NCBI RefSeq assembly: GCF_003334315.1
Contig: NZ_QOWR01000011.1
Reading direction: 5' to 3' (one strand)
Length of the DNA stretch: 64,000 bases
Source of the DNA: Escherichia coli
Lineage (GTDB): Bacteria; Pseudomonadota; Gammaproteobacteria; Enterobacterales; Enterobacteriaceae
Below are positions 5,746 to 64,000 of this stretch, piece after piece. Position 1 is the first letter of the stretch, and each line of letters opens with the position of its first letter. The notes below the pieces were generated by a model. It worked only from the letters and a program-made list of their open reading frames with translations, ran no database searches and was not told the origin of the DNA. Position numbers and translations under genes: made by a program.

Positions 5746-6311
5746 TAGATCTTAACTCGCTGAATAAACTCACCAAATGCGGTCAATTGCCCGGTCAGGT
5801 GGTCCAGCGTACCCTGGTCAATCACTTCTCCGGTTTGCGGATCAACTTTGTTCTGAATCACGCCGCCCATAAATTCCGGCTTGTTCATCACCATTGCATC
5901 GAGGAAAACCAGAATCTGGCGCAGGTGATACTGACAGCGCGCGCCGCCAATCACGCCCATTGAGCTGGTCTGAATCAATACCGGTTTACCGGCCAGCGGT
6001 TGATCCGGCAGGCGGGAAAGCCAGTCGATGGCATTTTTCAGCCCACCCGGTACCGAGTAGTTATATTCCGGCGTGACGATCACCACACCGTCAGCCTGAC
6101 GGATCTGTTCCGCCAGAGCTTCAACCGTTGCTGGAAAACCGTCTTCCTGCTGTACGTCAGCGTCATACAAGGGAATGTCGGCAATGGAAGGTAACGCATT
6201 GACTTCCATGCTCGCCGGAGCAATTTTCGGCAGGGTACGTGCAACCATGCCATTAAATGAGCCTTTGCGCAGGCTCCCCAGTAACGTAACCACCTGCAAT
6301 TTTTCAGACAT
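5745..6311 (-). CDS. chrR: NAD(P)H-dependent FMN reductase / chromate-quinone reductase
   Basis: 188-aa ORF; flavodoxin-like NADPH-dependent FMN reductase signature (LLGSLRKGSFN). Confidence 0.85.
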   Translation of the reverse strand: MSEKLQVVTLLGSLRKGSFNGMVARTLPKIAPASMEVNALPSIADIPLYDADVQQEDGFPATVEALAEQIRQADGVVIVTPEYNYSVPGGLKNAIDWLSRLPDQPLAGKPVLIQTSSMGVIGGARCQYHLRQILVFLDAMVMNKPEFMGGVIQNKVDPQTGEVIDQGTLDHLTGQLTAFGEFIQRVKI

Positions 6312-6332
6312 GATGACTCCTGTGGTTGTCTA

Positions 6333-7094
6333 TCAATTTGGCGAAAAAGCCTTCACGGTAGAGAGTTGGGCAAAACGCATCATCCGGCTGGTAGGATTGT
6401 TGGCGCGGCTGTGAATATCCGGCAGGCTTTTCCAGCCGTGTTTGCCATCTAACTCCCAGACACTGAGCTTTTCAATCGTGGGCGTGACCGCCACGGACCA
6501 CACCAGCACGTCTTCCGCGTCGCATAACGCTTCTACATGATTTACATGAGCACATTTCAGGCGTCCGGCAATGGGCAGCAGCTGCAGATCGCGCGGATCG
6601 TCATTCAAAACATCACCGGTTAGTTTTAGCACGCTTCGGCGCAGCGTGATGAGCTGCGCCCGCGCTTCGTTAGGATCGTTTTGTTTACTGATCCATAGCG
6701 ATTCATTGCTGGAAAAGGTGTGGTTATCGGGCGCGTGTGGGCTATGAAACCCGCGCGTCGCACGCTGTAGTTCCATATCGAGACCACATTCACCTTCGGT
6801 TGTTAACGCCACGCCAACCATATTCCCGGCATAGGAAATAGAAAACGAAGGCAAATTTTTATCACTGAAAACCGGTTTACCTTTCGGCAGGGTGACGATT
6901 TCCGGCAATTCGCCAATGCCATACAGCATGAACATCAGTTCTGCGAGTAAACCTCTAGACGCCAGAAAACGGCTTTGACGATGAGGGGGAATGTTTCGGG
7001 CTTCTTGATGACACTGGGAGGGGAGACGAACAGAAATCAGATGTCCTTCCGTTAAAATCCCTCGGGCAAAGTGAGTCGCCATTTTTCGCTCCAT
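6333..7094 (-). CDS. yieE: putative 4'-phosphopantetheinyl transferase family protein
   Basis: 253-aa ORF in track; synteny between chrR and yidZ; start may lie a few codons downstream. Confidence 0.7.
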   Translation of the reverse strand: MERKMATHFARGILTEGHLISVRLPSQCHQEARNIPPHRQSRFLASRGLLAELMFMLYGIGELPEIVTLPKGKPVFSDKNLPSFSISYAGNMVGVALTTEGECGLDMELQRATRGFHSPHAPDNHTFSSNESLWISKQNDPNEARAQLITLRRSVLKLTGDVLNDDPRDLQLLPIAGRLKCAHVNHVEALCDAEDVLVWSVAVTPTIEKLSVWELDGKHGWKSLPDIHSRANNPTSRMMRFAQLSTVKAFSPN

Positions 7095-7238
7095 GCTTAA
7101 TGGTCCATTATGAATACAAGAGTAATCATTTACTGGAATGATGGACAGACTAAAGCGGCTAAAAGTTCGATTCAGACAAGCTTATTACAACTTTTTTACA
7201 TTTTATTGTGAAATTGGGTCGCGTTTCATACGATTCGG

Positions 7239-8198
7239 TTATGCCATCGACGCGTAAAGGTTTTTAATGGTTTCCCGTAACCAGACGATCTTCGGATTAT
7301 GGCTGTTCCGTTTATGCCACAGCAGGGTAAAAGGAACTTCCAGCTTTTTTTGCTGGCTTTCGTCAAACGGGAGAGGAAGAGCAACCAACGGCAGTTGATG
7401 GAGTTGATTGTAGTACTGACAGTAGCGCGGCGCGGTCGCCAGTAGCAGATTGTCGGGTTGCGCTGCCATAAACAGTGACTGCTCAAATTCCGGCAGGCTC
7501 ATAGCAATCGTGCGTTCGCGCCCCAGCTCCTGTAACACATTGTCCAGCGCCCAGGTGTCGCTCTGTTCCCAGCAAATGCTGATATGCGGATAACGTAAAA
7601 AGGTGTCCAGATTCCACGTTTCATGCAGTGCCGGATGATCTTTGCGTAACCAGACGCAGGGTACATCACTAAACAGCACTTCATAATCAATGGCTAACGG
7701 TAGCGAGCTTAACAGCTCCCGCGAGCGAGGATGGCTTTCGCGACCGGAAAAACCAATATCCACTTCACCACGAGTAATGGCATCTAAGGAATCGTAATCC
7801 CAGTTACGTAGTTTGATGGTCGCCTGCGGGTAACGTTGGTAGATCCGTTTCGACAGCGCATTAAGCATGATCATCATCAGCGGCGATTCCGCCGCCAACT
7901 CAAACTTCAGGCCGCGCGGTGTCTGGTGGTGCGGTTTATCCAGCAGCAGATTGCTCATTTGCATCTATTCCGCCAGATTTTGCTCCATGCTGACCATCAG
8001 CGGTGTGGGCGACAGACCCAGCGGTGAGTTCACAAAGAGCGGGTCGTCAAACCACGCTCTTAACTTTGCCAGCGACTTACTCACCGCCGAAGGTGTCACG
8101 TTTATCCGCTTCGCCGCTTTGGTTACGCTGCGCTCCTGCATCAGCAGTTGCAGACAAAGCAGCAGATTGAGATCAAGCGTGGTGATGGATTTCTTCAT
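7239..8198 (-). pseudogene. yidZ: LysR-family transcriptional regulator interrupted by an in-frame amber codon (TAG at 7965..7967)
   Basis: Track shows an 80-aa HTH ORF (7965..8207) and a 241-aa substrate-domain ORF (7239..7964) in the same frame separated only by TAG; read-through gives a 319-aa LysR regulator. Confidence 0.75.
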
Positions 8199-23497: not shown

Positions 23498-23896
23498 ATG
23501 GGGCTTTTTGATGAAGTTGTCGGTGCCTTTCTGAAAGGCGATGCGGGGAAATATCAGGCTATTTTAAGTTGAGTTGAGGAGCAGGGCGGCATTCAGGTGC
23601 TGCTGGAAAAACTGCAAAGTGGCGGCTTAGGGGCCATTCTCTCAACCTGGCTGAGTAATCAACAGGGCAATCAATCGGTTAGTGGCGAGCAACTGGAATC
23701 GGCGCTCGGCACAAATGCGGTGTCCGATCTCGGGCAAAAACTTGGCGTGGATACCAGTACAGCTTCCAGTTTACTGGCAGAACAATTGCCGAAGATTATT
23801 GATGCGCTCTCACCGCAAGGTGAAGTGTCACCACAAGCCAATAACGATCTGCTTTCCGCAGGCATGGAACTGCTGAAAGGGAAACTCTTCCGCTAA
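23498..23896 (+). pseudogene. yidB: DUF937-family protein gene interrupted by an in-frame opal codon (TGA at 23570..23572)
   Basis: ATG at 23498 with upstream GGTGA gives MGLFDEVVGAFLKGDAGKYQAILS then TGA; the same frame continues VEEQGGIQVLLEKLQ... to 23896; read-through is exactly 132 aa. Confidence 0.7.
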
Positions 23897-25802: not shown

Positions 25803-26492
25803 ATGACTCTCAATAAAACCGATCGCATTGTCATTACGCTGGGTAAACAGATCGTTCACGGCAAATACGTGCCAGGCTCGCCGCTTCCGGCTGAGGCGGA
25901 ACTCTGTGAGGAGTTTGCAACCTCGCGCAACATCATCCGTGAGGTGTTCCGTTCGCTGATGGCGAAGCGGCTGATTGAAATGAAACGTTATCGCGGGGCG
26001 TTTGTGGCACCGCGTAACCAGTGGAATTACCTCGACACTGACGTACTGCAATGGGTGCTGGAAAATGACTACGACCCACGGCTTATCAGTGCCATGAGCG
26101 AAGTGCGAAATCTGGTGGAACCGGCGATTGCCCGTTGGGCAGCAGAGCGCGCGACTTCCAGCGATCTGGCGCAGATTGAATCGGCGCTGAACGAGATGAT
26201 TGCCAACAATCAGGACCGCGAAGCGTTTAACGAAGCGGATATTCGCTACCACGAGGCGGTGCTGCAGTCGGTGCATAACCCGGTGTTACAGCAACTTAGC
26301 ATTGCGATCAGTTCGCTGCAGCGGGCGGTTTTTGAACGAACCTGGATGGGCGATGAGGCCAACATGCCGCAAACGCTCCAGGAACATAAGGCGCTGTTCG
26401 ATGCGATACGACATCAGGACGGCGATGCGGCAGAGCAGGCGGCGCTTACCATGATCGCCAGCTCGACACGAAGGTTAAAGGAAATCACATGA
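25803..26492 (+). CDS. dgoR: GntR/FadR-family repressor of the D-galactonate operon
   Basis: 229-aa ORF; N-terminal winged HTH; first gene of dgoRKADT. Confidence 0.9.
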   Translation: MTLNKTDRIVITLGKQIVHGKYVPGSPLPAEAELCEEFATSRNIIREVFRSLMAKRLIEMKRYRGAFVAPRNQWNYLDTDVLQWVLENDYDPRLISAMSEVRNLVEPAIARWAAERATSSDLAQIESALNEMIANNQDREAFNEADIRYHEAVLQSVHNPVLQQLSIAISSLQRAVFERTWMGDEANMPQTLQEHKALFDAIRHQDGDAAEQAALTMIASSTRRLKEIT

Positions 26493-27367
26493 CAGCTCGC
26501 TACATCGCAATTGACTGGGGATCGACCAATCTGCGCGCCTGGCTTTATCAGGGCGACCACTGCCTGGAGAGCAGGCAATCAGAAGCAGGCGTCACGCGCC
26601 TGAACGGAAAATCTCCGGCTGCGGTGTTAGCAGAAGTCACGACCGACTGGCGTGAAGAGAAAACGCCAGTGGTAATGGCAGGAATGGTTGGCAGCAACGT
26701 CGGCTGGAAAGTTGCACCGTATTTATCTGTTCCTGCCTGTTTTTCGTCTATTGGCGAACAATTAACGTCAGTTGGCGACAATATCTGGATTATTCCCGGA
26801 TTATGCGTCTCTCATGACGATAACCACAATGTGATGCGCGGCGAAGAAACACAATTGATCGGCGCGCGAACTCTGGCTCCTTCCTCTCTTTATGTTATGC
26901 CCGGTACGCATTGCAAATGGGTGCAGGCCGATAGCCAGCAAATCAACGATTTTCGCACCGTGATGACCGGTGAATTACATCATTTACTGTTAAATCACTC
27001 ATTGATTGGCGCAGGTTTGCCGCCGCAGGAAAACTCTGCCGATGCCTTCGCGGCTGGCCTTGAGCGCGGCCTTAATGCGCCCGCCATATTGCCGCAGCTT
27101 TTTGAAGTTCGCGCCTCGCATGTGCTGGGAACACTTCCCCGCGAACAGGTCAGCGAATTTCTCTCTGGTTTGTTGATTGGCGCAGAGGTTGCCAGTATGC
27201 GCGACTATGTGACCCATCAACACGCCATCACCCTTGTCGCCGGAACATCGCTGACCGCGCGCTACCAGCAAGCCTTTCAGGCGATGGGTTGCGACGTGAC
27301 GGCGGTGGCGGGCGACACGGCATTTCAGGCTGGTATAAGGAGCATCGCTCATGCAGTGGCAAACTAA
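26489..27367 (+). CDS. dgoK: 2-dehydro-3-deoxygalactonokinase
   Basis: 292-aa ORF; overlaps dgoR stop (ATGA) and dgoA start. Confidence 0.9.
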   Translation: MTARYIAIDWGSTNLRAWLYQGDHCLESRQSEAGVTRLNGKSPAAVLAEVTTDWREEKTPVVMAGMVGSNVGWKVAPYLSVPACFSSIGEQLTSVGDNIWIIPGLCVSHDDNHNVMRGEETQLIGARTLAPSSLYVMPGTHCKWVQADSQQINDFRTVMTGELHHLLLNHSLIGAGLPPQENSADAFAAGLERGLNAPAILPQLFEVRASHVLGTLPREQVSEFLSGLLIGAEVASMRDYVTHQHAITLVAGTSLTARYQQAFQAMGCDVTAVAGDTAFQAGIRSIAHAVAN

Positions 27368-27968
27368 ACTTCCGCTGATCGCCATTTTGCGCGGCATTAA
27401 GCCCGACGAGGCGCTGGCGCATGTTGGCGCGGTGATTGACGCCGGGTTCGACGCGGTTGAAATCCCGCTGAATTCCCCACAATGGGAGCAAAGCATTCCC
27501 GCCATCGTTGATGCGTATGGCGACAAGGCGTTGATTGGCGCAGGTACGGTACTGAAACCTGAACAGGTCGATGCGCTCGCCAGGATGGGCTGTCAGCTCA
27601 TCGTTACGCCCAATATCCATAGTGAAGTGATCCGCCGTGCGGTGGGCTACGGCATGACCGTCTGCCCCGGCTGCGCGACGGCGACCGAAGCCTTTACCGC
27701 GCTCGAAGCGGGCGCGCAGGCGCTGAAAATATTTCCGTCATCGGCTTTTGGTCCGCAATACATCAAAGCGTTAAAAGCGGTATTGCCATCGGACATCGCA
27801 GTCTTTGCCGTTGGCGGCGTGACGCCAGAAAACCTGGCGCAGTGGATAGACGCAGGTTGTGCTGGGGCGGGCTTAGGCAGCGATCTCTATCGCGCCGGGC
27901 AGTCCGTAGAACGCACCGCGCAGCAGGCAGCAGCATTTGTTAAGGCGTATCGAGAGGCAGTGCAATGA
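27351..27968 (+). CDS. dgoA: 2-dehydro-3-deoxy-6-phosphogalactonate aldolase
   Basis: 205-aa ORF, KDPG/KHG aldolase family; 17-bp overlap with dgoK. Confidence 0.9.
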
Positions 27969-29113
27969 AAATCACCAAAATTACCACGTATCGTTTACCT
28001 CCCCGCTGGATGTTCCTGAAAATTGAAACCGATGAAGGCGTGGTCGGCTGGGGCGAGCCAGTGATTGAAGGCCGCGCCCGCACGGTGGAAGCGGCAGTTC
28101 ACGAGCTGAGCGACTATTTGATTGGTCAGGATCCATCGCGCATCAACGACTTATGGCAAGTGATGTATCGCGCCGGATTTTATCGTGGCGGTCCAATCCT
28201 GATGAGCGCCATCGCCGGGATCGACCAGGCGTTATGGGATATCAAAGGCAAAGTGCTGAATGCGCCGGTCTGGCAACTGATGGGCGGCCTGGTTCGCGAC
28301 AAAATTAAAGCCTACAGTTGGGTCGGCGGCGATCGTCCGGCGGATGTTATCGACGGCATTAAAACGCTACGCGAAATCGGCTTCGATACCTTTAAACTGA
28401 ACGGTTGTGAAGAACTGGGGCTAATTGATAACTCCCGCGCGGTAGATGCGGCAGTCAACACCGTGGCACAAATTCGTGAAGCTTTTGGCAATCAGATTGA
28501 GTTTGGTCTTGATTTCCACGGTCGCGTCAGCGCGCCGATGGCGAAAGTGCTGATTAAAGAACTGGAGCCGTATCGCCCACTGTTTATTGAAGAGCCGGTG
28601 CTGGCAGAACAAGCCGAATACTACCCGAAACTGGCGGCACAAACGCATATTCCGCTGGCGGCGGGTGAGCGCATGTTCTCACGCTTCGATTTTAAACGCG
28701 TGCTGGAGGCGGGCGGTATTTCGATTCTGCAACCGGATCTCTCCCACGCGGGCGGTATTACCGAATGCTACAAAATTGCCGGAATGGCAGAAGCCTATGA
28801 TGTGACCCTTGCGCCGCACTGTCCGCTCGGACCGATTGCACTGGCGGCTTGTCTGCATATCGACTTTGTTTCCTATAACGCGGTACTTCAGGAACAAAGT
28901 ATGGGCATTCATTACAACAAAGGCGCGGAGTTACTCGACTTTGTGAAAAACAAAGAAGACTTCAGCATGGTTGGCGGCTTCTTTAAACCGTTAACGAAAC
29001 CGGGCTTAGGCGTGGAAATCGACGAAGCTAAAGTTATTGAGTTCAGTAAAAATGCCCCGGACTGGCGTAATCCGCTCTGGCGTCATGAAGATAACAGCGT
29101 AGCAGAGTGGTAA
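27965..29113 (+). CDS. dgoD: D-galactonate dehydratase (enolase superfamily)
   Basis: 382-aa ORF; mandelate racemase / muconate lactonizing enzyme family signature. Confidence 0.92.
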
Positions 29114-29232
29114 TTCCTGCCACGTAAGCCCCTCATCGGGCACTAAAACAGCAATACAAAAATATAACCCTCTGTAAATTACAGGGCATGGTGAGCGGCT
29201 TCGCTATGCCCAAAATCTGGAGAAAGCTCGCT

Positions 29233-30525
29233 ATGGATATCCCCGTTAATGCAGCAAAGCCGGGGCGTCGGCGTTATCTGACGCTGGTGATGATCTTTAT
29301 TACGGTGGTCATTTGTTATGTTGACCGCGCTAACCTGGCCGTGGCTTCCGCCCATATTCAGGAAGAGTTCGGCATTACGAAAGCGGAAATGGGCTATGTA
29401 TTTTCGGCCTTCGCCTGGCTTTATACGCTATGCCAGATCCCCGGCGGTTGGTTTTTAGATCGCGTAGGTTCTCGCGTGACTTATTTTATTGCGATATTTG
29501 GTTGGTCAGTGGCGACTTTATTCCAGGGCTTTGCCACGGGATTAATGTCATTAATTGGTCTGCGTGCGATAACCGGTATTTTCGAAGCGCCCGCTTTCCC
29601 GACCAATAACCGGATGGTGACCAGCTGGTTCCCGGAACATGAACGCGCTTCCGCCGTTGGTTTTTATACGTCTGGTCAGTTTGTCGGTCTGGCGTTTTTG
29701 ACTCCGCTGCTGATCTGGATTCAGGAGATGTTGAGCTGGCACTGGGTGTTCATTGTCACTGGTGGTATCGGCATTATCTGGTCGCTGATTTGGTTTAAGG
29801 TTTATCAGCCGCCGCGCCTGACCAAAGGTATCAGCAAAGCTGAACTGGATTACATTCGTGATGGCGGCGGTCTGGTGGATGGTGATGCGCCGGTGAAAAA
29901 AGAGGCACGTCAGCCGTTAACAGCCAAAGACTGGAAGCTGGTGTTCCATCGTAAACTGATCGGCGTTTATCTTGGGCAATTTGCGGTGGCTTCTACACTG
30001 TGGTTTTTCTTAACCTGGTTCCCGAACTATTTAACCCAGGAAAAAGGAATCACGGCGCTGAAAGCAGGCTTTATGACCACGGTGCCATTCCTCGCGGCGT
30101 TTGTCGGCGTCCTGCTCTCTGGCTGGGTCGCGGATCTGCTGGTACGTAAGGGCTTTTCACTGGGCTTTGCGCGTAAAACGCCGATTATCTGCGGCTTGCT
30201 GATCTCCACCTGCATTATGGGCGCTAACTACACTAACGATCCGATGATGATTATGTGCCTGATGGCGCTGGCATTCTTCGGTAACGGTTTTGCTTCGATT
30301 ACCTGGTCGCTGGTCTCTTCTCTGGCACCGATGCGCCTGATTGGTTTAACCGGCGGCGTGTTTAACTTCGCCGGTGGTCTGGGCGGCATCACCGTTCCGC
30401 TGGTGGTGGGGTACCTGGCGCAGGGTTACGGTTTCGCACCTGCACTGGTTTATATCTCCGCCGTCGCGTTGATTGGCGCGCTCTCTTACATCCTGCTGGT
30501 GGGCGATGTGAAGCGCGTTGGCTAA
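29233..30525 (+). CDS. dgoT: D-galactonate:H+ symporter (MFS, anion:cation symporter family)
   Basis: ORF track 29188..30525 trimmed to [16 protein letters not shown] (430 aa); 12-TM MFS. Confidence 0.9.
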
Positions 30526-31586
30526 TCTTTCAACTGTGGAATATGCGCCATACCACTGCGCATAATCCACTTTCTTAAAGCCGGTGCGGTCAGGCATCGG
30601 CTTTTTACTATCTTGCCGAAGAGTTTTAAACGCAGTTTGCGGGTGGCGCGCCAGTAAGCGGTATTGAGCTTCTCTGGCTGCTTCAGTAACACCGCACGCA
30701 GAATGTCTGCGCTATCCAGCGCATAGCTAATCCCCTCCAGCGAACTGGCGCTGATAAATCCTGCCGCTTCGCCAATCAGAAAGGCGTTGTCCTTACCGCA
30801 GACAAAATCCTGCCAGCGTGAGGGAAACAGCACCGTGCATTTTTCGCTTTTCACCGCCTTACCAAACTGGAACTGAAAGGCGCTCATTTTCTCTTTCAGC
30901 GTCGTGAAACGCGTCTGACCGTCTTTCATTGGATAAGCACCGCCAAAGATAAAATAACCGTCTTTGCTGATACTCCATGAATAACAGTTAGTTATCGAAT
31001 TATCAAAGATGCAGGAGTAGAACGGCACCGGATGTTTCTCCGCGAACCACTGCTGGATAGCGACATATTTACGGATTTGATGATCCGGGTAGAGATGTCG
31101 CCGCACCATCGAGTTTGCGCCATCGGCACCGACCAGATAGCGGGCGGTAATATGTTGCTCCCAGCCGTCTGCACGAAAAATGACATGCCATTTATCATCC
31201 TCACGCCAGATTTTTCGGCACAGGCTATCGTGATAAACCTCAACGCTGGTGGGGATCAGCGATTTCATCCACAAGTCGAAAGCATGGCGATTAATATTGA
31301 TATAGCTTCGCTGGTAGTTACGCGTGAGCGATGCGGCGACGTCGACAGTTTTGACGCTGAAAATCTGCGGGTTGGCGATCACATCGACAGGAAGCGTCAG
31401 TCCATCGCGAATAAAAGATCGCTGCGCGTCCGGTGCCAGCAGACCGCCGCAAGGTTTGCTGAAACCTTCAGTACCACACTGGTGCTTTTTATCCAGCGCG
31501 ATCACCTGCATTTTGCCTGCTAATTTTCGCGCCAACGCCGATCCTGCCGGGCCGATGCCAATAATCGCCACGTCGAAATGTTCCAT
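30522..31586 (-). CDS. cbrA: CreB-regulated FAD-dependent oxidoreductase (geranylgeranyl reductase-like)
   Basis: ORF track 30522..31607 trimmed to [22 protein letters not shown] (354 aa); Rossmann GxGxxG FAD-binding motif at the N-terminus. Confidence 0.85.
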
Positions 31587-31632
31587 CTTTTCACTCACAT
31601 TCATCACGATGGCAAAAGACTATTGTCTGAAA

Positions 31633-31648
31633 GTGAAGTCCTTGTGAA
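31633..31648 (-). promoter_or_regulatory. cre tag (CreB binding site) upstream of cbrA
   Basis: Minus-strand reading TTCAC-AAGGAC-TTCAC, a perfect direct repeat about 50 bp upstream of the cbrA start. Confidence 0.6.
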
Positions 31649-31650
31649 GT

Positions 31651-32901
31651 ATGATGGCGGGACCCGTTTTGTATCAGGACCGCGCCATGAAACAGATAAC
31701 CTTTGCTCCCCGTAATCACCTGCTCACCAATACCAATACCTGGACGCCCGACAGCCAGTGGCTGGTATTTGACGTGCGTCCTTCTGGCGCGTCGTTTACC
31801 GGAGAGAGCATTGAGCGTGTGAATATCCATACCGGCGAGGTCGAGGTTATCTATCGCGCGTCACAGGGCGCACACGTCGGCGTGGTGACCGTTCATCCGA
31901 AGTCAGAGAAGTATGTCTTCATCCACGGCCCGGAAAATCCTGATGAAACATGGCATTACGACTTCCATCATCGGCGCGGAGTGATTGTTGAAGGCGGCAA
32001 GATGAGTAACCTTGATGCGATGGATATTACCGCGCCGTATACGCCTGGAGCGCTGCGCGGCGGCAGCCATGTGCATGTCTTTAGCCCGAACGGTGAAAGG
32101 GTGAGCTTTACCTATAACGACCATGTAATGCATCAACTCGATCCGGCGCTGGATTTGCGAAACGTCGGTGTTGCTGCACCGTTTGGCCCGGTCAATGTAC
32201 AAAAGCAGCATCCGCGTGAGTACAGCGGTAGCCACTGGTGCGTGCTGGTGAGTAAAACCACGCCCACGCCGCAGCCAGGCAGTGATGAAATCAATCGTGC
32301 TTATGAAGAAGGATGGGTAGGAAATCACACGCTGGCGTTTATTGGCGACACACTTTCGCCAAAGGGCGAGAAAGTGCCGGAGCTGTTTATCGTTGAGTTA
32401 CCGCAAGATGAAGCTGGCTGGAAAGCGGCAGGTGATGCGCCGTTAAGTGGAACGGAAACCACCCTGCCCGCGCCACCGCGCGGCGTCGTGCAGCGACGTT
32501 TAACCTTTACCCACCATCGGGCTTATCCGGGGTTAGTCAACGTCCCGCGCCACTGGGTGCGCTGTAATCCGCAGGGTACGCAAATCGCGTTTTTAATGCG
32601 TGATGATAACGGCATTGTGCAACTATGGCTTATCTCGCCACAGGGCGGCGAGCCGCGCCAGTTAACCCATAACAAAACGGATATTCAGTCTGCATTTAAC
32701 TGGCATCCATCAGGAGAATGGTTGGGCTTTGTGCTGGATAATCGAATTGCTTGTGCCCATGCGCAAAGCGGCGAGGTTGAGTATTTAACCGAAAACCACG
32801 CCAATCCGCCTTCTGCGGATGCCGTGGTCTTCTCACCGGATGGTCAATGGCTGGCGTGGATGGAAGGTGGCCAGCTGTGGATCACCGAAACTGATCGCTA
32901 A
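31651..32901 (+). CDS. yidR: uncharacterised protein YidR
   Basis: 416-aa ORF in track; start uncertain (ATG at 31651/31654 or RBS-supported ATG at 31687). Confidence 0.7.
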   Translation: MMAGPVLYQDRAMKQITFAPRNHLLTNTNTWTPDSQWLVFDVRPSGASFTGESIERVNIHTGEVEVIYRASQGAHVGVVTVHPKSEKYVFIHGPENPDETWHYDFHHRRGVIVEGGKMSNLDAMDITAPYTPGALRGGSHVHVFSPNGERVSFTYNDHVMHQLDPALDLRNVGVAAPFGPVNVQKQHPREYSGSHWCVLVSKTTPTPQPGSDEINRAYEEGWVGNHTLAFIGDTLSPKGEKVPELFIVELPQDEAGWKAAGDAPLSGTETTLPAPPRGVVQRRLTFTHHRAYPGLVNVPRHWVRCNPQGTQIAFLMRDDNGIVQLWLISPQGGEPRQLTHNKTDIQSAFNWHPSGEWLGFVLDNRIACAHAQSGEVEYLTENHANPPSADAVVFSPDGQWLAWMEGGQLWITETDR

Positions 32902-32902
32902 A

Positions 32903-33235
32903 TCAGTTATCAGGCATTCTGGCCGGTGGAATAACCGCATTGGTGGCTTGCGCGTTGGCTTCGCTTTTTTCAACGCGTGAGCGCACCGAGCTGTCTTTGC
33001 GGAACACATCCCACGGCAGTAAAAGCGTGTCCATCACAGCGGTAAACGGCATATCGAGAATCGCCAGCGACTTAGTGCCCCAGTTGGTTTCATCGTCGCC
33101 AATCATGGTGGCGCTGGCGCGGGTGCCGGGATACGTTCCTTCTTTCCCCCCGGTATGGGACATCACGCTGGAGCATCCTCCGAGTAATGTCATTCCGCTG
33201 CATATCATGAACGCTAACAACACATTTCTTATCAT
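32903..33235 (-). CDS. yidQ: small lipoprotein (DUF1375 family)
   Basis: ORF track trimmed to MIRNVLLAFMICSGMTLLGGCSSV (110 aa); lipobox LGGC. Confidence 0.7.
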   Translation of the reverse strand: MIRNVLLAFMICSGMTLLGGCSSVMSHTGGKEGTYPGTRASATMIGDDETNWGTKSLAILDMPFTAVMDTLLLPWDVFRKDSSVRSRVEKSEANAQATNAVIPPARMPDN

Positions 33236-33409
33236 AATAAATTCATCTGTTGATCGTGGGTGTTGGCCTGATGAGTTATAGCGATCCCTTGCTGAAAATA
33301 ACATCATCATTACGTCGCTCTGTGGCGGCAATCGCACTTTAACGTTTCGTGCTGCCCCCTCAGTCTATGCAATAGACCATAAACTGCAAAAAAAAGTCCG
33401 CTGATAAGG

Positions 33410-33438
33410 CTTGAAAAGTTCATTTCCAGACCCATTTT
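33410..33438 (+). promoter_or_regulatory. sigma-32 heat-shock promoter of ibpAB
   Basis: -35 CTTGAAA and -10 CCCATTTT separated by 14 bp, matching the sigma-32 consensus CTTGAAA-N13-14-CCCCATnT. Confidence 0.7.
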
Positions 33439-33446
33439 TACATCGT

Positions 33447-33540
33447 AGCCGATGAGGACGCGCCTGATGGGTGTTCTGGCTACCTGACCTGTCCATTGTG
33501 GAAGGTCTTACATTCTCGCTGATTTCAGGAGCTATTGATT
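33447..33540 (+). promoter_or_regulatory. ibpA 5' UTR (about 95 nt; candidate ROSE-like RNA thermometer)
   Basis: Long structured leader between the sigma-32 promoter and the ibpA RBS; thermometer function is established knowledge, the fold was not computed. Confidence 0.45.
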
Positions 33541-33954
33541 ATGCGTAACTTTGATTTATCCCCGCTTTACCGTTCTGCTATTGGATTTGACCGTTTGTTT
33601 AACCACTTAGAAAACAACCAGAGCCAGAGTAATGGCGGCTACCCTCCGTATAACGTTGAACTGGTAGACGAAAACCATTACCGCATTGCTATCGCTGTGG
33701 CTGGTTTTGCTGAGAGCGAACTGGAAATTACCGCCCAGGATAATCTGCTGGTGGTGAAAGGTGCTCACGCCGACGAACAAAAAGAGCGCACCTATCTGTA
33801 CCAGGGCATCGCTGAACGCAACTTTGAACGCAAATTCCAGTTAGCTGAGAACATTCATGTTCGTGGGGCTAACCTGGTAAATGGTTTGCTGTATATCGAT
33901 CTCGAACGCGTGATTCCGGAAGCGAAAAAACCGCGCCGTATCGAAATCAACTAA
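33541..33954 (+). CDS. ibpA: small heat shock protein IbpA (alpha-crystallin family)
   Basis: 137-aa ORF starting [21 protein letters not shown]; alpha-crystallin domain. Confidence 0.95.
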
Positions 33955-34065
33955 TTCCCTAAGGCCGCCTGGCGCGGCCTGACATCTCCATGCTCGCCGT
34001 CAGGGAGCATATGCGAATCTTCGGATTTGCAGGTACTTACTCGCTTCTTAGAAGGAGAAATGACT

Positions 34066-34494
34066 ATGCGTAACTTCGATTTATCCCCACTGATGCGTCA
34101 ATGGATCGGTTTTGACAAACTGGCCAACGCACTGCAAAACGCCGGTGAAAGCCAGAGCTTCCCGCCGTACAACATTGAGAAAAGCGACGATAACCACTAC
34201 CGCATTACCCTTGCGCTGGCAGGTTTCCGTCAGGAAGATTTAGAGATTCAACTGGAAGGTACGCGCCTGAGCGTAAAAGGCACGCCGGAGCAGCCAAAAG
34301 AAGAGAAAAAATGGCTGCATCAAGGGCTTATGAATCAGCCATTTAGCCTGAGCTTTACGCTGGCTGAAAATATGGAAGTCTCTGGCGCAACCTTCGTAAA
34401 CGGTTTACTGCATATTGATTTAATTCGTAATGAGCCTGAACCCATCGCAGCGCAGCGTATCGCTATCAGCGAACGTCCCGCGTTAAATAGCTAA
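34066..34494 (+). CDS. ibpB: small heat shock protein IbpB
   Basis: 142-aa paralogue of ibpA starting [21 protein letters not shown]. Confidence 0.95.
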
Positions 34495-34509
34495 CTAGCT
34501 ATTCTCTTT

Positions 34510-34537
34510 GCCCCGCCATTCTGGTGGGGCTTTTTTT
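34510..34537 (+). terminator. rho-independent terminator after ibpB
   Basis: GCCCCGCCA...TGGTGGGGC stem followed by TTTTTTT. Confidence 0.75.
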
Positions 34538-34689
34538 GTCTTACTTACTCAACAATGCGTTAAATTTCGACTGTTTAAGATATTTCGGCACGTTCTTTCC
34601 CGTGATAATGTGCGCTATAAGGCAAATCTGCTTCACCGATTCAGCCATAATCCGTAGCAATTAAAATGTTATCTCAAGAGAAATGGACG

Positions 34690-36351
34690 ATGAGTGATAT
34701 AGCATTAACGGTCAGTATTCTGGCTTTGGTGGCAGTCGTCGGTTTGTTTATCGGCAACGTCAAATTTCGCGGCATAGGATTAGGTATTGGCGGCGTGCTG
34801 TTTGGTGGGATCATCGTCGGCCATTTTGTTTCTCAGGCGGGGATGACATTAAGTAGCGATATGCTGCATGTTATTCAGGAATTTGGCCTGATCCTGTTCG
34901 TTTATACCATCGGGATTCAGGTAGGGCCGGGCTTCTTTGCCTCATTGCGCGTCTCCGGATTACGCCTCAACCTGTTTGCTGTTCTGATCGTCATCATCGG
35001 TGGTCTGGTTACCGCCATCCTGCATAAACTGTTTGATATTCCACTGCCGGTAGTGCTGGGGATTTTCTCCGGTGCGGTTACCAATACGCCAGCGCTGGGG
35101 GCAGGGCAGCAGATTTTGCGCGACCTGGGTACACCAATGGAAATGGTCGATCAGATGGGGATGAGTTACGCGATGGCGTATCCATTCGGCATTTGCGGGA
35201 TTTTGTTCACCATGTGGATGTTGCGGGTTATTTTCCGCGTCAATGTCGAGACAGAAGCTCAGCAGCACGAGTCTTCACGCACCAATGGCGGCGCGCTGAT
35301 CAAGACTATCAATATTCGCGTTGAGAACCCTAACCTGCATGATTTAGCCATTAAAGATGTACCGATTCTCAACGGCGACAAAATTATCTGCTCGCGTCTG
35401 AAACGCGAAGAAACCCTAAAAGTTCCTTCGCCAGATACCATTATCCAACTGGGCGATTTGCTGCATCTGGTGGGTCAGCCAGCGGATTTACATAATGCGC
35501 AACTGGTGATTGGTCAGGAGGTCGATACCTCGCTGTCTACGAAAGGCACTGATTTGCGCGTCGAGCGTGTGGTGGTCACCAATGAAAACGTGCTCGGAAA
35601 ACGTATTCGCGACCTGCACTTTAAAGAACGCTATGACGTTGTTATCTCGCGCCTGAACCGTGCCGGGGTCGAACTGGTCGCCAGTGGCGATATCAGCCTG
35701 CAGTTCGGCGATATCCTCAATCTGGTGGGGCGTCCGTCCGCAATTGATGCCGTTGCCAATGTGCTGGGGAATGCGCAGCAAAAACTGCAACAGGTTCAGA
35801 TGCTGCCAGTGTTTATTGGCATCGGGCTTGGCGTATTGTTAGGTTCTATTCCCGTCTTTGTGCCTGGGTTCCCGGCCGCGTTGAAACTGGGGCTGGCGGG
35901 CGGTCCGCTGATTATGGCGTTGATCCTCGGGCGTATCGGCAGTATCGGCAAGCTGTACTGGTTTATGCCGCCAAGCGCCAACCTCGCGCTGCGGGAACTG
36001 GGGATCGTGCTGTTCCTCTCGGTCGTTGGTCTGAAATCTGGTGGGGATTTTGTGAATACCCTGGTCAATGGCGAAGGGCTAAGCTGGATTGGTTATGGTG
36101 CCCTGATCACCGCCGTTCCGCTGATTACTGTTGGCATTCTGGCGCGGATGTTAGCCAAAATGAATTACCTGACCATGTGCGGGATGCTGGCAGGTTCCAT
36201 GACCGATCCTCCGGCGCTGGCGTTTGCTAATAATCTTCATCCAACCAGTGGTGCGGCGGCGCTCTCTTACGCCACTGTCTATCCGTTAGTGATGTTTCTG
36301 CGAATTATCACCCCCCAATTACTGGCGGTGCTCTTCTGGAGTATCGGTTAA
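34690..36351 (+). CDS. yidE: putative transporter of the aspartate:alanine exchanger (AAE) family with two TrkA-C domains
   Basis: ORF track trimmed to [22 protein letters not shown] (553 aa); two membrane domains flanking cytoplasmic TrkA-C repeats. Confidence 0.85.
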
Positions 36352-37064
36352 CTCTTTTCCGGGTGGAGTCGCCGTAAATGGTACTCCACCTGGTATTCGC
36401 TGGCATTTCTGAACATCACTGAATAATTCAAAAACTCCCCGCTCTCGCTATATGACAACGAGGTGATCCGCAGCAGTGGCGTGTGTTCCGCTACCTTCAT
36501 TTGCCGCGCCAGCAGTCTATCGGCGAGCACTGGCGTCAGGCTTTCATAATTACCGCCAATCAAAATCCCGCACTCTTGTTCAATATATTCAAACTTCGAC
36601 CCTTCCAGATGTTGCAGCGAAAGATTACGGAACAGTTTTACCGGCATATAGCTGTCTTCCAGCATCAGCGGTTTCCCTTCCACAAAACGAACGCGACGGG
36701 AGAAGTAGATCTGCTCGTTGATTTGAATCCGTAACTGGCTGGCAATGGCCGGAGGCGCAGGCATGATTTCAAAAATCAGCACCTGGCTGGTGACCGTTTT
36801 TCCCTGCCGTTTTAACACCTCCACCAGTCCGGTCAGGCTGGCGGTTTGATGCAGCACATCTTTGCGCACCAGGTAAGTGCCGCTGCCGTGGCGGCGGACC
36901 ACCAGCCCCCACGCTACCAGCAGGTCAATCGCTTTACGGATGGTCATCCGGGATACTGCAAATTCTTCCGCCAACTTTTTTTCACCGGGAAGAAGGCTGT
37001 TTAGCGTGAAATCTGCGGAATTAAGTCGAATTCTTAACCGCTCCGCAATGCTTTTGTAGATCAT
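36348..37064 (-). CDS. yidP: GntR/HutC-family transcriptional regulator
   Basis: ORF track trimmed to [19 protein letters not shown] (238 aa); HTH motif [23 protein letters not shown] effector domain. Confidence 0.8.
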
Positions 37065-37359
37065 CTCTAGATCTCTTTTTTGCCTGCAAGCCCGGGTAAT
37101 GCGCCCACAAGTTCTGCTTAATCGATTGAAAAAACATCTTTTTTTTAAAGATGTGTTCGATGCTGTGTACCAGTGCTCACAGATGTCTACTTTTTCGCGA
37201 AAACGTAGATCTCTACCGCCCAACGAAAAGCATGAAAGCGATCACGAATCCCATTGGGTCGTCATGTTCTGTCGATCGCATCTTCCTATCCTCGCTCCAG
37301 GCCTGCCGCATAACCAATCAGGCTTCCTACTTACAGAATTGAGAAAAGAGGATGTGGAA

Positions 37360-40680
<3,321 letters not shown>

Positions 40681-57173: not shown

Positions 57174-58508
57174 ATGAATAATGACAATACCGATTACGTG
57201 AGTAATGAATCAGGGACGCTTTCGCGATTATTTAAACTACCTCAGCATGGGACCACCGTCCGCACAGAATTGATTGCGGGGATGACCACTTTTTTAACCA
57301 TGGTGTACATCGTTTTTGTGAACCCGCAAATCCTCGGCGCGGCACAAATGGACCCGAAAGTGGTGTTTGTTACCACCTGTTTGATTGCCGGTATCGGCAG
57401 TATTGCGATGGGGATATTTGCTAACTTACCCGTGGCGCTGGCTCCGGCAATGGGGCTGAACGCCTTCTTTGCCTTCGTGGTCGTGGGGGCGATGGGCATC
57501 TCCTGGCAGACCGGGATGGGCGCAATATTCTGGGGCGCAGTTGGACTATTTTTGCTCACGCTGTTTCGTATCCGGTACTGGATGATCTCCAACATTCCCT
57601 TAAGTTTACGTATTGGTATCACCAGCGGAATTGGATTATTTATCGCCTTAATGGGATTAAAAAATACTGGCGTTATTGTCGCCAATAAAGACACGCTGGT
57701 GATGATTGGCGATTTAAGTTCTCACGGCGTGTTGTTAGGTATTTTAGGGTTTTTTATTATAACCGTGTTGTCATCACGTCATTTTCATGCCGCGGTGCTG
57801 GTTTCTATTGTGGTGACGTCTTGCTGTGGATTATTTTTCGGTGATGTTCATTTTAGCGGCGTCTATTCCATTCCGCCTGATATTAGCGGCGTCATTGGTG
57901 AAGTAGATTTGAGCGGCGCGTTAACACTTGAACTCGCCGGTATCATTTTCTCCTTTATGCTGATCAACCTATTTGATTCATCAGGAACATTAATTGGTGT
58001 AACTGATAAAGCGGGCTTAATAGATAGTAACGGTAAATTCCCCAATATGAATAAGGCGCTGTATGTTGATAGCGTCAGTTCGGTGGCGGGGGCGTTTATC
58101 GGCACCTCGTCTGTTACTGCCTATATTGAAAGTACTTCTGGTGTGGCAGTCGGTGGTCGCACGGGGCTGACTGCGGTTGTGGTTGGCGTTATGTTCCTGT
58201 TAGTTATGTTCTTCTCACCGCTGGTGGCGATGGTTCCTCCTTACGCAACCGCCGGAGCGTTAATCTTTGTTGGCGTGCTGATGACTTCGAGCCTGGCGCG
58301 CGTTAACTGGGATGATTTTACCGAATCGGTGCCTGCGTTTATTACCACGGTGATGATGCCCTTTACTTTCTCGATCACCGAAGGGATTGCACTCGGCTTT
58401 ATGTCGTACTGCATCATGAAAGTGTGCACCGGGCGCTGGCGCGATCTGAACCTGTGTGTGGTGGTGGTCGCAGCTCTGTTTGCACTGAAGATTATTCTGG
58501 TGGATTAG
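57174..58508 (+). CDS. adeQ: adenine permease (NCS2/AzgA family), paralogue of adeP
   Basis: ORF track 57096..58508 trimmed to MNNDNTDYVSNESGTLSRLF (444 aa). Confidence 0.85.
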   Translation: MNNDNTDYVSNESGTLSRLFKLPQHGTTVRTELIAGMTTFLTMVYIVFVNPQILGAAQMDPKVVFVTTCLIAGIGSIAMGIFANLPVALAPAMGLNAFFAFVVVGAMGISWQTGMGAIFWGAVGLFLLTLFRIRYWMISNIPLSLRIGITSGIGLFIALMGLKNTGVIVANKDTLVMIGDLSSHGVLLGILGFFIITVLSSRHFHAAVLVSIVVTSCCGLFFGDVHFSGVYSIPPDISGVIGEVDLSGALTLELAGIIFSFMLINLFDSSGTLIGVTDKAGLIDSNGKFPNMNKALYVDSVSSVAGAFIGTSSVTAYIESTSGVAVGGRTGLTAVVVGVMFLLVMFFSPLVAMVPPYATAGALIFVGVLMTSSLARVNWDDFTESVPAFITTVMMPFTFSITEGIALGFMSYCIMKVCTGRWRDLNLCVVVVAALFALKIILVD

Positions 58509-58560
58509 TAACTGGCGAGGGTTTCCAGATATCATGAGTTCTGATTACGCAGGAGAACTC

Positions 58561-59013
58561 ATGATCTGGATAATGCTCGCCACGCTGGCGGTAGTGTTTG
58601 TGGTTGGTTTTCGGGTGCTGACATCCGGGGCCAGAAAAGCGATTCGCCGTCTCAGCGATCGGCTGAATATCGATGTCGTACCCGTGGAGTCGATGGTCGA
58701 TCAAATGGGAAAGTCAGCCGGTGACGAATTTTTACGTTATTTGCATCGCCCGGATGAGTCGCACCTGCAAAACGCCGCGCAGGTGTTGCTCATCTGGCAA
58801 ATTGTCATTGTCGATGGTAGCGAACAGAACCTGCTGCAATGGCATCGGATTTTACAAAAAGCCCGTCTTGCCGCGCCGATTACCGATGCTCAGGTCAGGC
58901 TGGCGCTGGGTTTTCTGCGCGAAACCGAACCTGAAATGCAGGATATTAATGCTTTTCAGATGCGCTATAACGCGTTCTTTCAGCCTGCCGAGGGCGTTCA
59001 CTGGCTGCATTAA
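58561..59013 (+). CDS. yicN: uncharacterised protein YicN
   Basis: ORF track trimmed to MIWIMLATLAVVFVVGFRVL (150 aa), N-terminal TM helix. Confidence 0.7.
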   Translation: MIWIMLATLAVVFVVGFRVLTSGARKAIRRLSDRLNIDVVPVESMVDQMGKSAGDEFLRYLHRPDESHLQNAAQVLLIWQIVIVDGSEQNLLQWHRILQKARLAAPITDAQVRLALGFLRETEPEMQDINAFQMRYNAFFQPAEGVHWLH

Positions 59014-59021
59014 AACCGCTT

Positions 59022-59087
59022 CGTCTTATCAGCCTACAGACCGCGCCTGACCTGTCGGGTGGATAAGACGTTCACGCCGCATCCGGT
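59022..59087. repeat. REP element(s) between yicN and nepI
   Basis: GGATAAGACGTTCACGCCGCATCCGG matches the REP consensus core. Confidence 0.6.
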
Positions 59088-59223
59088 AATCTTTGCCCTG
59101 TTCCGTTTCGATCTTAACTCCAGCTCAAGCAACACCGTAAAAGTTGCAAAAACGTTAAATGCGTCACACATTTCAATGTTAAAGTGGTCGGCTTTTCCCC
59201 TGAAACATGCCACGGGTAACACC

Positions 59224-60414
59224 ATGAGTGAATTTATTGCCGAAAACCGCGGCGCGGATGCCATCACCCGACCGAACTGGTCAGCCGTTTTCTCGGTGGC
59301 GTTTTGTGTCGCCTGTCTGATTATCGTTGAGTTTTTGCCCGTCAGTTTGTTGACGCCAATGGCCCAGGATTTAGGCATTTCGGAAGGGGTTGCCGGGCAA
59401 TCGGTGACCGTGACCGCCTTTGTGGCAATGTTTGCCAGTTTGTTTATTACCCAGACAATTCAGGCTACTGACCGCCGCTACGTTGTTATTTTGTTTGCCG
59501 TTTTGCTGACGCTCTCCTGCTTGCTGGTTTCCTTTGCTAACTCATTCAGTTTGCTTTTAATCGGTCGTGCCTGTCTGGGGCTGGCGCTGGGCGGGTTCTG
59601 GGCGATGTCGGCGTCGCTGACCATGCGTCTGGTGCCGCCGCGTACGGTGCCGAAGGCGCTGTCGGTGATCTTCGGCGCGGTTTCTATTGCGCTGGTGATT
59701 GCCGCGCCGTTGGGCAGTTTTTTAGGCGAGCTTATCGGTTGGCGCAATGTCTTTAATGCGGCGGCGGTGATGGGCGTGCTGTGTATTTTCTGGATTATCA
59801 AATCATTGCCTTCACTGCCAGGCGAACCCTCGCATCAGAAACAAAATACTTTCCGCTTATTACAACGTCCGGGTGTGATGGCAGGGATGATCGCCATCTT
59901 CATGTCTTTCGCCGGGCAGTTTGCTTTCTTCACGTATATTCGCCCGGTGTATATGAACCTGGCGGGATTCGGCGTGGATGGCTTAACGCTGGTGCTGTTG
60001 AGTTTTGGTATCGCCAGCTTTATTGGTACGTCGCTTTCGTCGTTCATTCTTAAACGTTCGGTAAAACTGGCCTTAGCAGGCGCGCCGTTAATACTGGCTG
60101 TGAGTGCGTTGGTACTGACGTTGTGGGGAAGCGATAAAATCGTTGCTACCGGCGTGGCGATTATCTGGGGGCTAACTTTTGCATTGGTTCCCGTCGGCTG
60201 GTCAACGTGGATCACCCGCTCGCTGGCCGATCAGGCAGAAAAAGCCGGGTCTATTCAGGTGGCGGTTATTCAGCTTGCTAATACCTGTGGCGCGGCAATC
60301 GGCGGTTATGCGCTGGATAATATTGGTCTGACTTCGCCGTTGATGTTGTCCGGCACATTGATGTTGCTGACTGCATTGTTGGTTACTGCAAAGGTGAAAA
60401 TGAAGAAATCCTGA
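59224..60414 (+). CDS. nepI: purine ribonucleoside efflux pump (MFS)
   Basis: ORF track 59059..60414 trimmed to [23 protein letters not shown] (396 aa); the upstream in-frame extension runs through the REP element. Confidence 0.85.
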
Positions 60415-60969: not shown

Positions 60970-61788
60970 ATGAAACTGACAACACATCATCTACGGACAG
61001 GGGCCGCATTATTGCTGGCCGGAATTCTGCTGGCAGGTTGCGACCAGAGTAGCAGCGATGCAAAACACATTAAAGTTGGCGTTATAAATGGCGCAGAACA
61101 AGATGTCGCGGAAGTCGCTAAAAAGGTGGCAAAAGAGAAATATGGCCTCGATGTTGAACTGGTAGGATTTAGCGGTTCGTTGCTACCGAACGATGCGACA
61201 AATCATGGCGAACTTGATGCGAATGTCTTCCAGCATCGACCCTTTCTTGAACAAGATAATCAGGCGCATGGTTATAAACTGGTAGCGGTGGGAAATACGT
61301 TTGTCTTCCCTATGGCGGGTTATTCCAAAAAAATCAAAACCGTGGCGCAAATAAAAGAAGGCGCGACAGTGGCGATCCCCAACGACCCGACCAACCTTGG
61401 TCGCGCACTTTTACTGTTGCAAAAAGAGAAGCTAATTACTCTGAAAGAGGGAAAAGGGTTATTACCTACCGCGCTGGATATAACCGATAATCCTCGTCAT
61501 TTGCAGATTATGGAACTCGAGGGGGCGCAGCTCCCGCGCGTACTGGATGATCCCAAAGTTGATGTAGCGATTATCAGCACCACTTACATTCAGCAGACCG
61601 GGCTTTCTCCGGTGCACGACAGCGTATTTATTGAAGATAAGAATTCGCCGTATGTGAATATTTTGGTGGCACGGGAAGATAATAAGAATGCAGAAAACGT
61701 GAAGGAATTTCTGCAATCTTATCAATCACCCGAAGTCGCTAAAGCGGCAGAAACCATTTTTAACGGTGGCGCGGTGCCTGGCTGGTAA
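60970..61788 (+). CDS. nlpA: lipoprotein-28 (MetQ/NlpA-family methionine-binding lipoprotein)
   Basis: 272-aa ORF; lipoprotein signal with lipobox LAGC. Confidence 0.9.
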   Translation: MKLTTHHLRTGAALLLAGILLAGCDQSSSDAKHIKVGVINGAEQDVAEVAKKVAKEKYGLDVELVGFSGSLLPNDATNHGELDANVFQHRPFLEQDNQAHGYKLVAVGNTFVFPMAGYSKKIKTVAQIKEGATVAIPNDPTNLGRALLLLQKEKLITLKEGKGLLPTALDITDNPRHLQIMELEGAQLPRVLDDPKVDVAIISTTYIQQTGLSPVHDSVFIEDKNSPYVNILVAREDNKNAENVKEFLQSYQSPEVAKAAETIFNGGAVPGW

Positions 61789-61791: not shown

Positions 61792-62715
61792 TCACTTATG
61801 CCGCGCCGGACGATTTATTTTTCTGGCGCGGCGACGGGAATCCATTGAAATCAAAATCACCGATGACAGAATCAGCAGCGTTCCCAGCCAGTCCGGTAAT
61901 GTGAACGTGATCCCCAGCAACAGCAAAGAGAGTAGCGCGCTACTTAATGGTTCTGCACAGCTCAAAATGCTGGCTTTTGGACCGCCAATTAATTGTGCTC
62001 CTTTCAGGTACAGACTAAATGTCAGGGACGTACCAATGACCACCAAATAAAAAAACGCCAGAATCAAACTGCCGTTAACGACAAAGTTTGTTCCTTGTCT
62101 GGCATAAAAAGGCAACAGAATCAGACCGCCAATCAGCATACTCCAGCCGACGACTGGTAACGTGCCATAGCGGGCAATTAGCGTTGAGGGATAGGTGGTA
62201 TAGAATGCAGCAGCAAATGCCGAGGCAATGCCCCAGAACAACGCGGCAGGAGAGATCGATAATGACGTCGGATTACCGTGTGTCACCAATAAAAAAGTCC
62301 CGACCAGCGATGTCAAAATAGCGCAGAAAACCAGAATGCCCGGGCGCGATTTACGCACCAGTGAGAACCAGGCGACGATAATCGTCGGTGAGAGGAATTG
62401 CAGCACCGTTGCCGTGGCTGCGTTCGATTTTTCGATGGTTAGCAAAAAAGTGAGCTGTACAGTTAGCGCGCCAACCACGGAAAAAATCAGCAGGCTAATG
62501 GCATCTTTATGATTGTTAATAATAGAAAAGATTTTATCGCCATGAACAAATGACAGCGTCAGTAGAATCAAACCGGCGAATATCAAACGCGTCATAGTCA
62601 AAAACTGCGACGACATCTGGCTTTGCTCCATGATGTATTGCGCGCAGACCCCTGAACTTCCCCACAACACGGCGGCAATCAGAACGTTCAGCATCCCCTT
62701 TCTGGTGGAACCCAT
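61792..62715 (-). CDS. yicL: EamA/DMT-superfamily transporter
   Basis: 307-aa 10-TM ORF with duplicated EamA domains. Confidence 0.8.
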
Positions 62716-62825: not shown

Positions 62826-63796
62826 CTAAATATCTTTAATAAACAGCAGGCAAATCATCGCAATACCCAACATCCCTATCGCCAGCCAGAACAACGCATG
62901 GTAGCTCCAGATTTCAACCATAATTCCGTCAACAGAGCCGGCGATAATCCAGCCGACGCGTGAAGTATTTGCATATAACGTTGTCGCAGAGCCTATTTTT
63001 TCAGGCATCAAGTCCTGAAAATAAAGCATGCCGATACCACAGAGAATACCAAGGAAGATGGCATTAAGAATTTGCAATTCCAGCTCAACCGCCGGAGTCG
63101 TCGCCATGAGTACGCTGGCGTAAAAACACATTCCACTCACGATAGCAATGAGCATTAATAGTCGCTTGCCAATACGTTTCATGTAATAGCCTGCGATTAA
63201 CATCATCGGAATTTCCAGACCGGCAGCGATACCAATCATTTCTCCAGCCAGTTTATCGGTTAGATGCAGTTCATCAATAATAAATAGCGGCATATTTATC
63301 ATGTAGAGATTATTCGCCGCCCACATCATTGAACAGACCACAAAAAGTAGCCGCGTATCCCGCTTCCTGTGGGTGGAGGGTAAAATTTCTACGGGTTGGG
63401 TAACGACAGGAATATTTCTTTGTATTGATGGCAAAAACAACCAGACTATCAGTCCGCAAACAACAAATGCGATGGCAGCGGTGAGATACATCACTTTAAA
63501 ACTAAATCCCATTGCCAGTTCATAAGCGAGCGGTGGCCCGATAACCCAGGCAAGCGAGATCTGAGCACGTAAAAATGTACTGAACATGACCGTCTCACGG
63601 CCTGTTCTGTCGGCGTGTTCACGGGCGAGGGCGAACATTTGCGGGTTTGCGGTGGAAGCAAAACTACTCAGAAGTACGCCCGTTGAGAGGAGAATGAAGT
63701 AGTTGCGATTCCACGCAAAAAGCGTGCAGGCCAGCACTCCAAATAAGCAACATAGCAGAATCAGTAATTTACGGTCGCCTTGTTTATCGGAGTGCC
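62826..63796 (-). pseudogene. setC: sugar efflux transporter SetC gene, truncated at its 5' end by an IS1 insertion
   Basis: Minus-strand frame stays open with SET-family sequence (...SDKQGDRKLLILLCCLFGVLACTLFAWNRNYF...) right up to 63796, where the IS1 terminal repeat begins; the SetC N-terminus is missing from the window. Confidence 0.8.
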
Positions 63797-64000
63797 GGTG
63801 ATGCTGCCAACTTACTGATTTAGTGTATGATGGTGTTTTTGAGGTGCTCCAGTGGCTTCTGTTTCTATCAGCTGTCCCTCCTGTTCAGCTACTGACGGGG
63901 TGGTGCGTAACGGCAAAAGCACCGCCGGACATCAGCGCTATCTCTGCTCTCACTGCCGTAAAACATGGCAACTGCAGTTCACTTACACCGCTTCTCAACC
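63797..64000 (+). mobile_element. IS1 insertion sequence, first 204 bp (terminal inverted repeat plus start of insA); continues beyond window
   Basis: Starts GGTGATGCTGCCAACTTACTGATTTAGTGTATGATGGTG..., the IS1 terminal inverted repeat, and runs into the insA frame. Confidence 0.9.
63852..64000 (+). CDS. insA: IS1 InsA (transposition repressor / N-terminal transposase part), partial
   Basis: GTG start 55 bp into IS1; translation (M)[48 protein letters not shown] carries the InsA zinc-finger Cys motifs. Confidence 0.85.

Follow-up and report, generated by a model that had tools for sequence, protein, structure and literature searches.

At the right-hand edge of the window, by which we mean the whole 64,000-nt stretch of Escherichia coli DNA analysed here, the reading frame of the sugar efflux gene setC stops abruptly against one end of an IS1 element, which raises the question of what kind of event joined the two. 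A preliminary description of this DNA had taken the arrangement for a strain-specific insertion interrupting setC, and proposed looking past the element for a 9-bp target duplication and for the remaining setC 5' end. The window itself stops at IS1 base 204; the full length, the frameshift and the right terminal inverted repeat (IRR) are known from relatives sharing the junction, and the far-side structure was likewise read from complete genomes that share it. The features on which the argument turns are collected in Table 1.

Table 1. Features at the setC-IS1 end of the window (window positions), and IRR-side end points in junction-carrying genomes (positions on L006, the reference selC island of strain S1-CAM-01-C).
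Feature	Position	Strand	Basis or remark	Genomes
nlpA, intact, 272-aa ORF	60970..61788	+	colinear with K-12	
yicL, intact downstream neighbour, 307-aa ORF	61792..62715	-	colinear with K-12	
setC remnant, nt 215-1185 of the 1,185-nt gene, codons 73-394 + stop	62826..63796	-	K-12 alignment, open frame	
Nine setC bases adjoining IRL, CGGAGTGCC	63788..63796	+	expected target-duplication site	
IS1 left end, first 204 of 768 bp, cut by window edge	63797..64000	+	100% identity to full-length copies	
IS1 left terminal inverted repeat (IRL), 23 bp	63797..63819	+	GGTGATGCTGCCAACTTACTGAT, 0 mismatches	
insA 5' part, GTG start, codons 1-49 + 2 nt	63852..64000	+	translation ending TYTASQ	
IRR-side end point	~7468 on L006		inside IS3 fragment	LR-50
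IRR-side end point	9001 on L006			29 genomes; a further 11 have the aatA segment inverted between two IS1 copies
IRR-side end point	10801 on L006		421-bp aatA fragment left	L6-21
IRR-side end point	14258 on L006		end of integrase gene	13C1065T
IRR-side end point	14662 on L006		deeper in integrase	162.2
IRR-side end points	inside int			HCP30S3_I2, HCP6S3_I2
IS1 far side joined to gadX			~170 kb away on K-12 map	ET5

That the window ends in IS1 is clear from the terminal inverted repeat, an exact match with a single occurrence in the window (0 expected from shuffled sequences), and from the insA frame, which starts ~55 bp from IRL as in other members of the IS1 family and whose translation gives the 49-residue N-terminus of InsA. 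In relatives, the IS1 transposase CDS as annotated by PGAP starts at the base equivalent to 63852. The 204 IS1 bases of the window are 100% identical to 768-bp IS1 copies in HS30-1 and other genomes, and where relatives share the junction exactly, their IS1 runs to 768 bp, has its IRR and carries a transposase that PGAP annotates with a 'programmed frameshift'. The preliminary description had thus placed the IS1 end exactly and had recognised its inverted repeat and the start of insA, and the full 768-bp element that it anticipated is present in the relatives sharing the junction.

On the other side of the junction, window 1-63796 is colinear with K-12 MG1655 3,900,956-3,837,167 at 99.5% identity, with no other mobile element and with one 6-bp indel. 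Homology to K-12 ends exactly at 63796, which corresponds to setC nt 215, and identity is 99.97% across the last 3.8 kb, the region of setC, yicL and nlpA, in which synteny is conserved. The minus-strand frame is free of stops from 62829 to 63796, as had been described, and runs 29 codons into IS1 before a stop, with no start codon there. The remnant scores 551.3 bits against TIGR00899 'sugar efflux transporter' (curated cut-off 522.3; profile positions 55-375 of 375), so the frame is SET-family, as the preliminary description had proposed to verify; the nucleotide identity and synteny just given make it orthologous to K-12 setC. At the junction setC has lost its promoter, its start codon and its first 71 codons, and the first possible start in what remains is a GTG at 63737, which would give 303 aa; the remnant thus falls short of an intact MFS protein, which would have 12 helices and a start codon and promoter of its own. 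In relatives, PGAP labels it a sugar efflux transporter, 'incomplete; missing N-terminus', beside the IS1 transposase. Without a promoter, a start codon or the first two transmembrane helices, setC here is a null allele, and the earlier statement that the IS1 end adjoins the setC frame and inactivates the gene holds, with the junction at setC nt 215. To our knowledge setC has no established function. Megablast detected the setC breakpoint region in 3,758 of 5,426 complete E. coli genomes, leaving ~30% without a match, and this patchy detection is consistent with setC being dispensable; given both points, its loss is unlikely to be phenotypically important.

The colinear part of the window differs from K-12 MG1655 in a few further respects. 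The 6-bp indel is an in-frame insertion in cbrB (window ~3314-3326) and the only indel in 63.8 kb. Premature stops are found at codon 25 of yidB (23498-23896, plus strand), a likely pseudogene, and at codon 78 of yidZ, which encodes a LysR-type regulator (7239-8198, minus strand). The genes glvC and glvB, two separate CDSs in the K-12 annotation, form one continuous 537-aa frame (37360-38973, plus strand), apparently PTS EIICB in its unsplit form. Mismatches to K-12 number 314 and cluster in window 1-8000, 26000-40000 and 58000-60000, the clusters being separated by stretches of ≥10 kb with 0-2 differences; recombination among phylogroup A strains typically leaves such a mosaic.

With a 601-bp query spanning it and a coverage of ≥80%, the setC-IS1 junction was found in ~76 of 5,426 complete E. 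coli genomes, and nearly all of the matches listed were single-piece and 100% identical, so the term 'strain-specific' does not apply. Window 40000-64000 (24 kb) is 100% identical to L6-21 and PI12, among others. Three of the junction-carrying strains have been published as ST206 or ST206-like (PMC7056805). The suggestion that the DNA comes from an IS1-rich lineage fared well, as junction-carrying chromosomes have at least 40 IS1 matches each against a median of 10 places per genome. Its proposed origins fared less well: setC is intact both in K-12 and in E. coli B (C41(DE3)), and we excluded both as the source for this reason. The 34-base junction had 0 matches in the GTDB species-representative genomes, which is weak negative evidence against Shigella-type representatives. 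The junction may serve as a convenient marker of an IS1-rich, ST206-like E. coli clade.

What lies beyond the element in these genomes is not the rest of setC. In HS30-1 the complete 768-bp IS1 is flanked by CGGAGTGCC on the setC side and by GAGGAATGG on the other, followed in order by a non-coding stretch of 552 bp, an autotransporter gene of 3,498 bp, an inverted second IS1, a gene for a P4-type tyrosine integrase and the tRNA-Sec gene (selC). The corresponding 835 bp of the K-12 locus (L002 3333-4167), comprising the DNA between selC and setC and setC nt 1-214, are absent from HS30-1, where they are replaced by a 7.6-kb IS1-aatA-IS1-int segment. The nine bases adjoining the far end of IS1 are GAGGAATGG in HS30-1, GCTGAAAGT in L6-21 and CAGATTTTG in 2018-11-3CC, as against CGGAGTGCC on the setC side, and further right flanks among the relatives are GGAGAGTGA, CAAAATCGA, CGGTTGCGC and CTCGCTGGC. 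None of the junction-sharing relatives examined has a 9-bp target duplication at this IS1, CGGAGTGCC not being repeated at its other end, and in the relatives examined the setC 5' end (nt 1-214) and promoter are absent beyond the element. Lack of setC-homologous sequence past IS1 is the very outcome that the preliminary description had named as speaking against its reading. Nor has the 5' piece been relocated elsewhere, because only 4 of 3,758 records hold the breakpoint region at two places. An internal control for these comparisons is provided by the IS1 in yicJ of HS30-1, where both gene halves and an 8-9-bp duplication are present.

This yicJ element (L003 9525-10292 in HS30-1) is a simple insertion and the third IS1 within 9 kb; it is absent from L6-21 and 2018-11-3CC, so that IS1 is evidently still active in this clade.

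The far side of the window's own IS1 we infer from its near-identical relatives, one of whose configurations the window genome presumably has; the two most similar to it, L6-21 and PI12, differ from each other beyond IS1.

The autotransporter gene next to IS1 is aatA, an adhesin gene of avian pathogenic E. coli (APEC) described as exactly 3,498 bp long and as also chromosomal in E. coli B (PMC2944236). The 421-bp fragment of it retained in some relatives matches the IMT5155 chromosome at 100% identity, and the aatA segment matches C41(DE3) at 98.7% identity over 93% of its length. Like the selC islands with aatA already described (PMC2944236), the relatives have, joined to setC by IS1, a P4-type integrase gene beside tRNA-Sec and a 3,498-bp autotransporter gene; unlike those islands, here a remnant lies between two IS1 copies, aatA is in some genomes reduced to 421 bp or lost, and no part of the island falls within the window itself. 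The cousin strain S1-CAM-01-C has an intact setC and a fuller selC island, in which setC is followed by a rhuM fragment, genes for DUF4942, DUF957 and DUF5983 proteins, the cbtA/yeeU pair, IS3 and IS91 fragments and then aatA, after which come an IS1 with the same integrase-side junction as in the clade, the integrase gene and selC. In the commonest form of the clade, 5,024 bp of the S1-CAM-01-C arrangement (L006 3977-9000) are missing and IS1 stands in their place. The aatA segment is not confined to chromosomes, being found also at 258 places on plasmids; on pF1022-2 (L008), the one plasmid looked at, its left flank consists of IS3 and IS91 fragments as in the selC island, which suggests plasmid-island exchange.

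The comparison among carriers indicates how the missing DNA was lost. The IRL-setC junction is identical throughout, and the IRR-side junction, typed individually in all but ~25 of the carriers, lies at at least five nested positions (Table 1), with the ancestral DNA in between missing. An unchanging junction on one side of the IS, a nested series of end points on the other and no target duplication are together the classic signature of IS1-promoted adjacent deletion. We therefore think it very probable that the window ends in a complete IS1 that forms the fixed edge of such a deletion, and that this deletion truncated setC. One feature counts against this reading: the CGGAGTGCC target is GC-rich, versus the AT-rich context preferred by IS1.

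The best-supported course of events has two steps. IS1 would first have arrived at setC nt 214/215 with IRL facing the 3' part of the gene, as a simple insertion or as the product of intramolecular transposition from the copy resident beside aatA in the selC island. An adjacent deletion from the IRR end would then have removed setC nt 1-214, the promoter and ~4.8 kb of the neighbouring island, including the rhuM fragment, the DUF4942, DUF957 and DUF5983 genes, the cbtA/yeeU toxin-antitoxin pair and the IS3 and IS91 fragments, leaving the setC remnant fused via IS1 to aatA, the inverted IS1, the integrase gene and tRNA-Sec. Descendants would have undergone further outward deletions from the IRR end of the same element, and in some of them recombination between the two inverted IS1 copies would have flipped the aatA segment. 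The order of these events is our reconstruction from the present-day arrangements, which do not distinguish among three routes: a simple insertion with subsequent deletion, a duplicative inversion from the resident IS1 with subsequent deletion, and recombination between two direct IS1 copies.

The last of these, homologous recombination between two direct IS1 copies (one inserted in setC and one in the island) that would depend on RecA and not on transposase and leave a single hybrid IS1, we regard as very improbable. It yields the same product, a single IS1 with no duplication, in a lineage with at least 40 IS1 copies, and recombination between IS1 elements is evident there, the aatA segment being inverted in 11 genomes and IS1 of ET5 being joined to gadX. 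It requires, however, a separate directly oriented IS1 at each of at least five nested end points, and no intermediate genome with two direct IS1 copies was seen; for these two reasons it is the less parsimonious account. Moreover, the IS1 resident in the island is inverted and would be unable to mediate a deletion by recombination.

ET5 is unusual in two ways (L017 5089-8665): an ISVsa5 element (IS4-like) additionally splits its setC remnant, and the gadX to which the far side of its IS1 is joined is truncated, which implies a large IS1-mediated rearrangement.

A simple insertion, with a 9-bp CGGAGTGCC duplication and 214 nt of setC plus the promoter just past the window end, is highly improbable as the present state of the locus. 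Simple IS1 insertions do occur at other positions in setC, in 64EVA and VG888-46E9, and one may have been the first step at this very site; the window alone, stopping before the far side of the element, is compatible with a simple insertion. At the exact site, however, a query built for a simple insertion (setC 3' side, duplicated 9-mer, setC 5' side) found no complete genome with that arrangement, and its only two-piece match was VG888-46E9, an independent insertion ~50 bp away. All junction carriers examined are without the duplication and without the setC 5' end, and it is to carriers of this kind, lacking a simple insertion, that the window is 100% identical over 24 kb.

It is extremely unlikely that an IS1-aatA-IS1 unit transposed whole into setC as a composite transposon, even though aatA is flanked by two inverted IS1 copies in 40 genomes and is found on many plasmids (the 258 places noted above). 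We rejected this candidate because the sequences bordering the two IS1 copies on the outside, CGGAGTGCC and CGTTCATTT, do not duplicate each other. In addition, the int-side IS1 junction already exists in the cousin S1-CAM-01-C, where setC is intact; the K-12-like sequence from selC to setC nt 214 is missing and not split; and on the plasmid examined the flanks of aatA consist of IS3, IS91, IS256 and IS66 fragments and not of IS1. An inversion was rejected as well, the setC-side flank having no match to the inner flank of the second IS1 in reverse complement.

IS1-promoted adjacent deletion, the reading that we retain, has a well-known counterpart in the deletions of the gal region of E. coli, which likewise have a constant IS1 junction, nested loss at the other end, no duplication and an intact IS1. 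Those deletions were selected in the laboratory; unlike them, the present ones occur naturally, as differences between wild and livestock isolates within one lineage, and their direction and order would have to be reconstructed as above. The simple IS1 insertions in setC of 64EVA and VG888-46E9 and in yicJ of HS30-1 involve the same element, in the first two cases the same gene, and also inactivate the gene concerned; in contrast to the junction of the window type, which has neither in any relative, they keep both gene halves and an 8-9-bp duplication.

From these several events, setC is a recurrent IS1 target. In PEC414 (L010 3345-5000) an independent IS1-bounded truncation keeps 897 bp of setC; its IS1 is oppositely oriented, and the join lies 180 bp further into the region upstream of aatA; because this event is independent, IS1-bounded deletion of setC arose at least twice. 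The unrelated strain VG888-46E9 has, besides its own simple IS1 insertion in setC, an IS1-bounded deletion nearby (L011 5734-7292), in which IS1 joins adeD directly to a shortened nlpA and adeQ, yicN, nepI and yicS are missing.

The earlier reading of this locus is thus partly supported: IS1 did inactivate setC in an IS1-rich lineage, and the event is a clade-shared IS1-bounded deletion, not a strain-specific simple insertion, and represents ordinary genome decay. The kind of event is already known, and the remnant is already annotated as a pseudogene in relatives, so the finding has little importance beyond annotation. The locus is best read as a setC pseudogene left by an IS1-bounded deletion beside a decayed selC island, not as a clean insertion, and past the window edge we would expect neither a setC 5' end nor a target duplication. 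The variable far side nevertheless illustrates the erosion of genomic islands by IS1, including loss of the aatA adhesin gene. It is possible, though on balance doubtful, that the IS1 at setC acts as a persistent one-ended 'deletion engine' that is progressively erasing the selC island, aatA included, in a successful ST206-like lineage associated with livestock and humans; if this were true, the isolates would constitute a natural nested-deletion series in which the rate and directionality of IS1-driven genome reduction could be measured in the wild.
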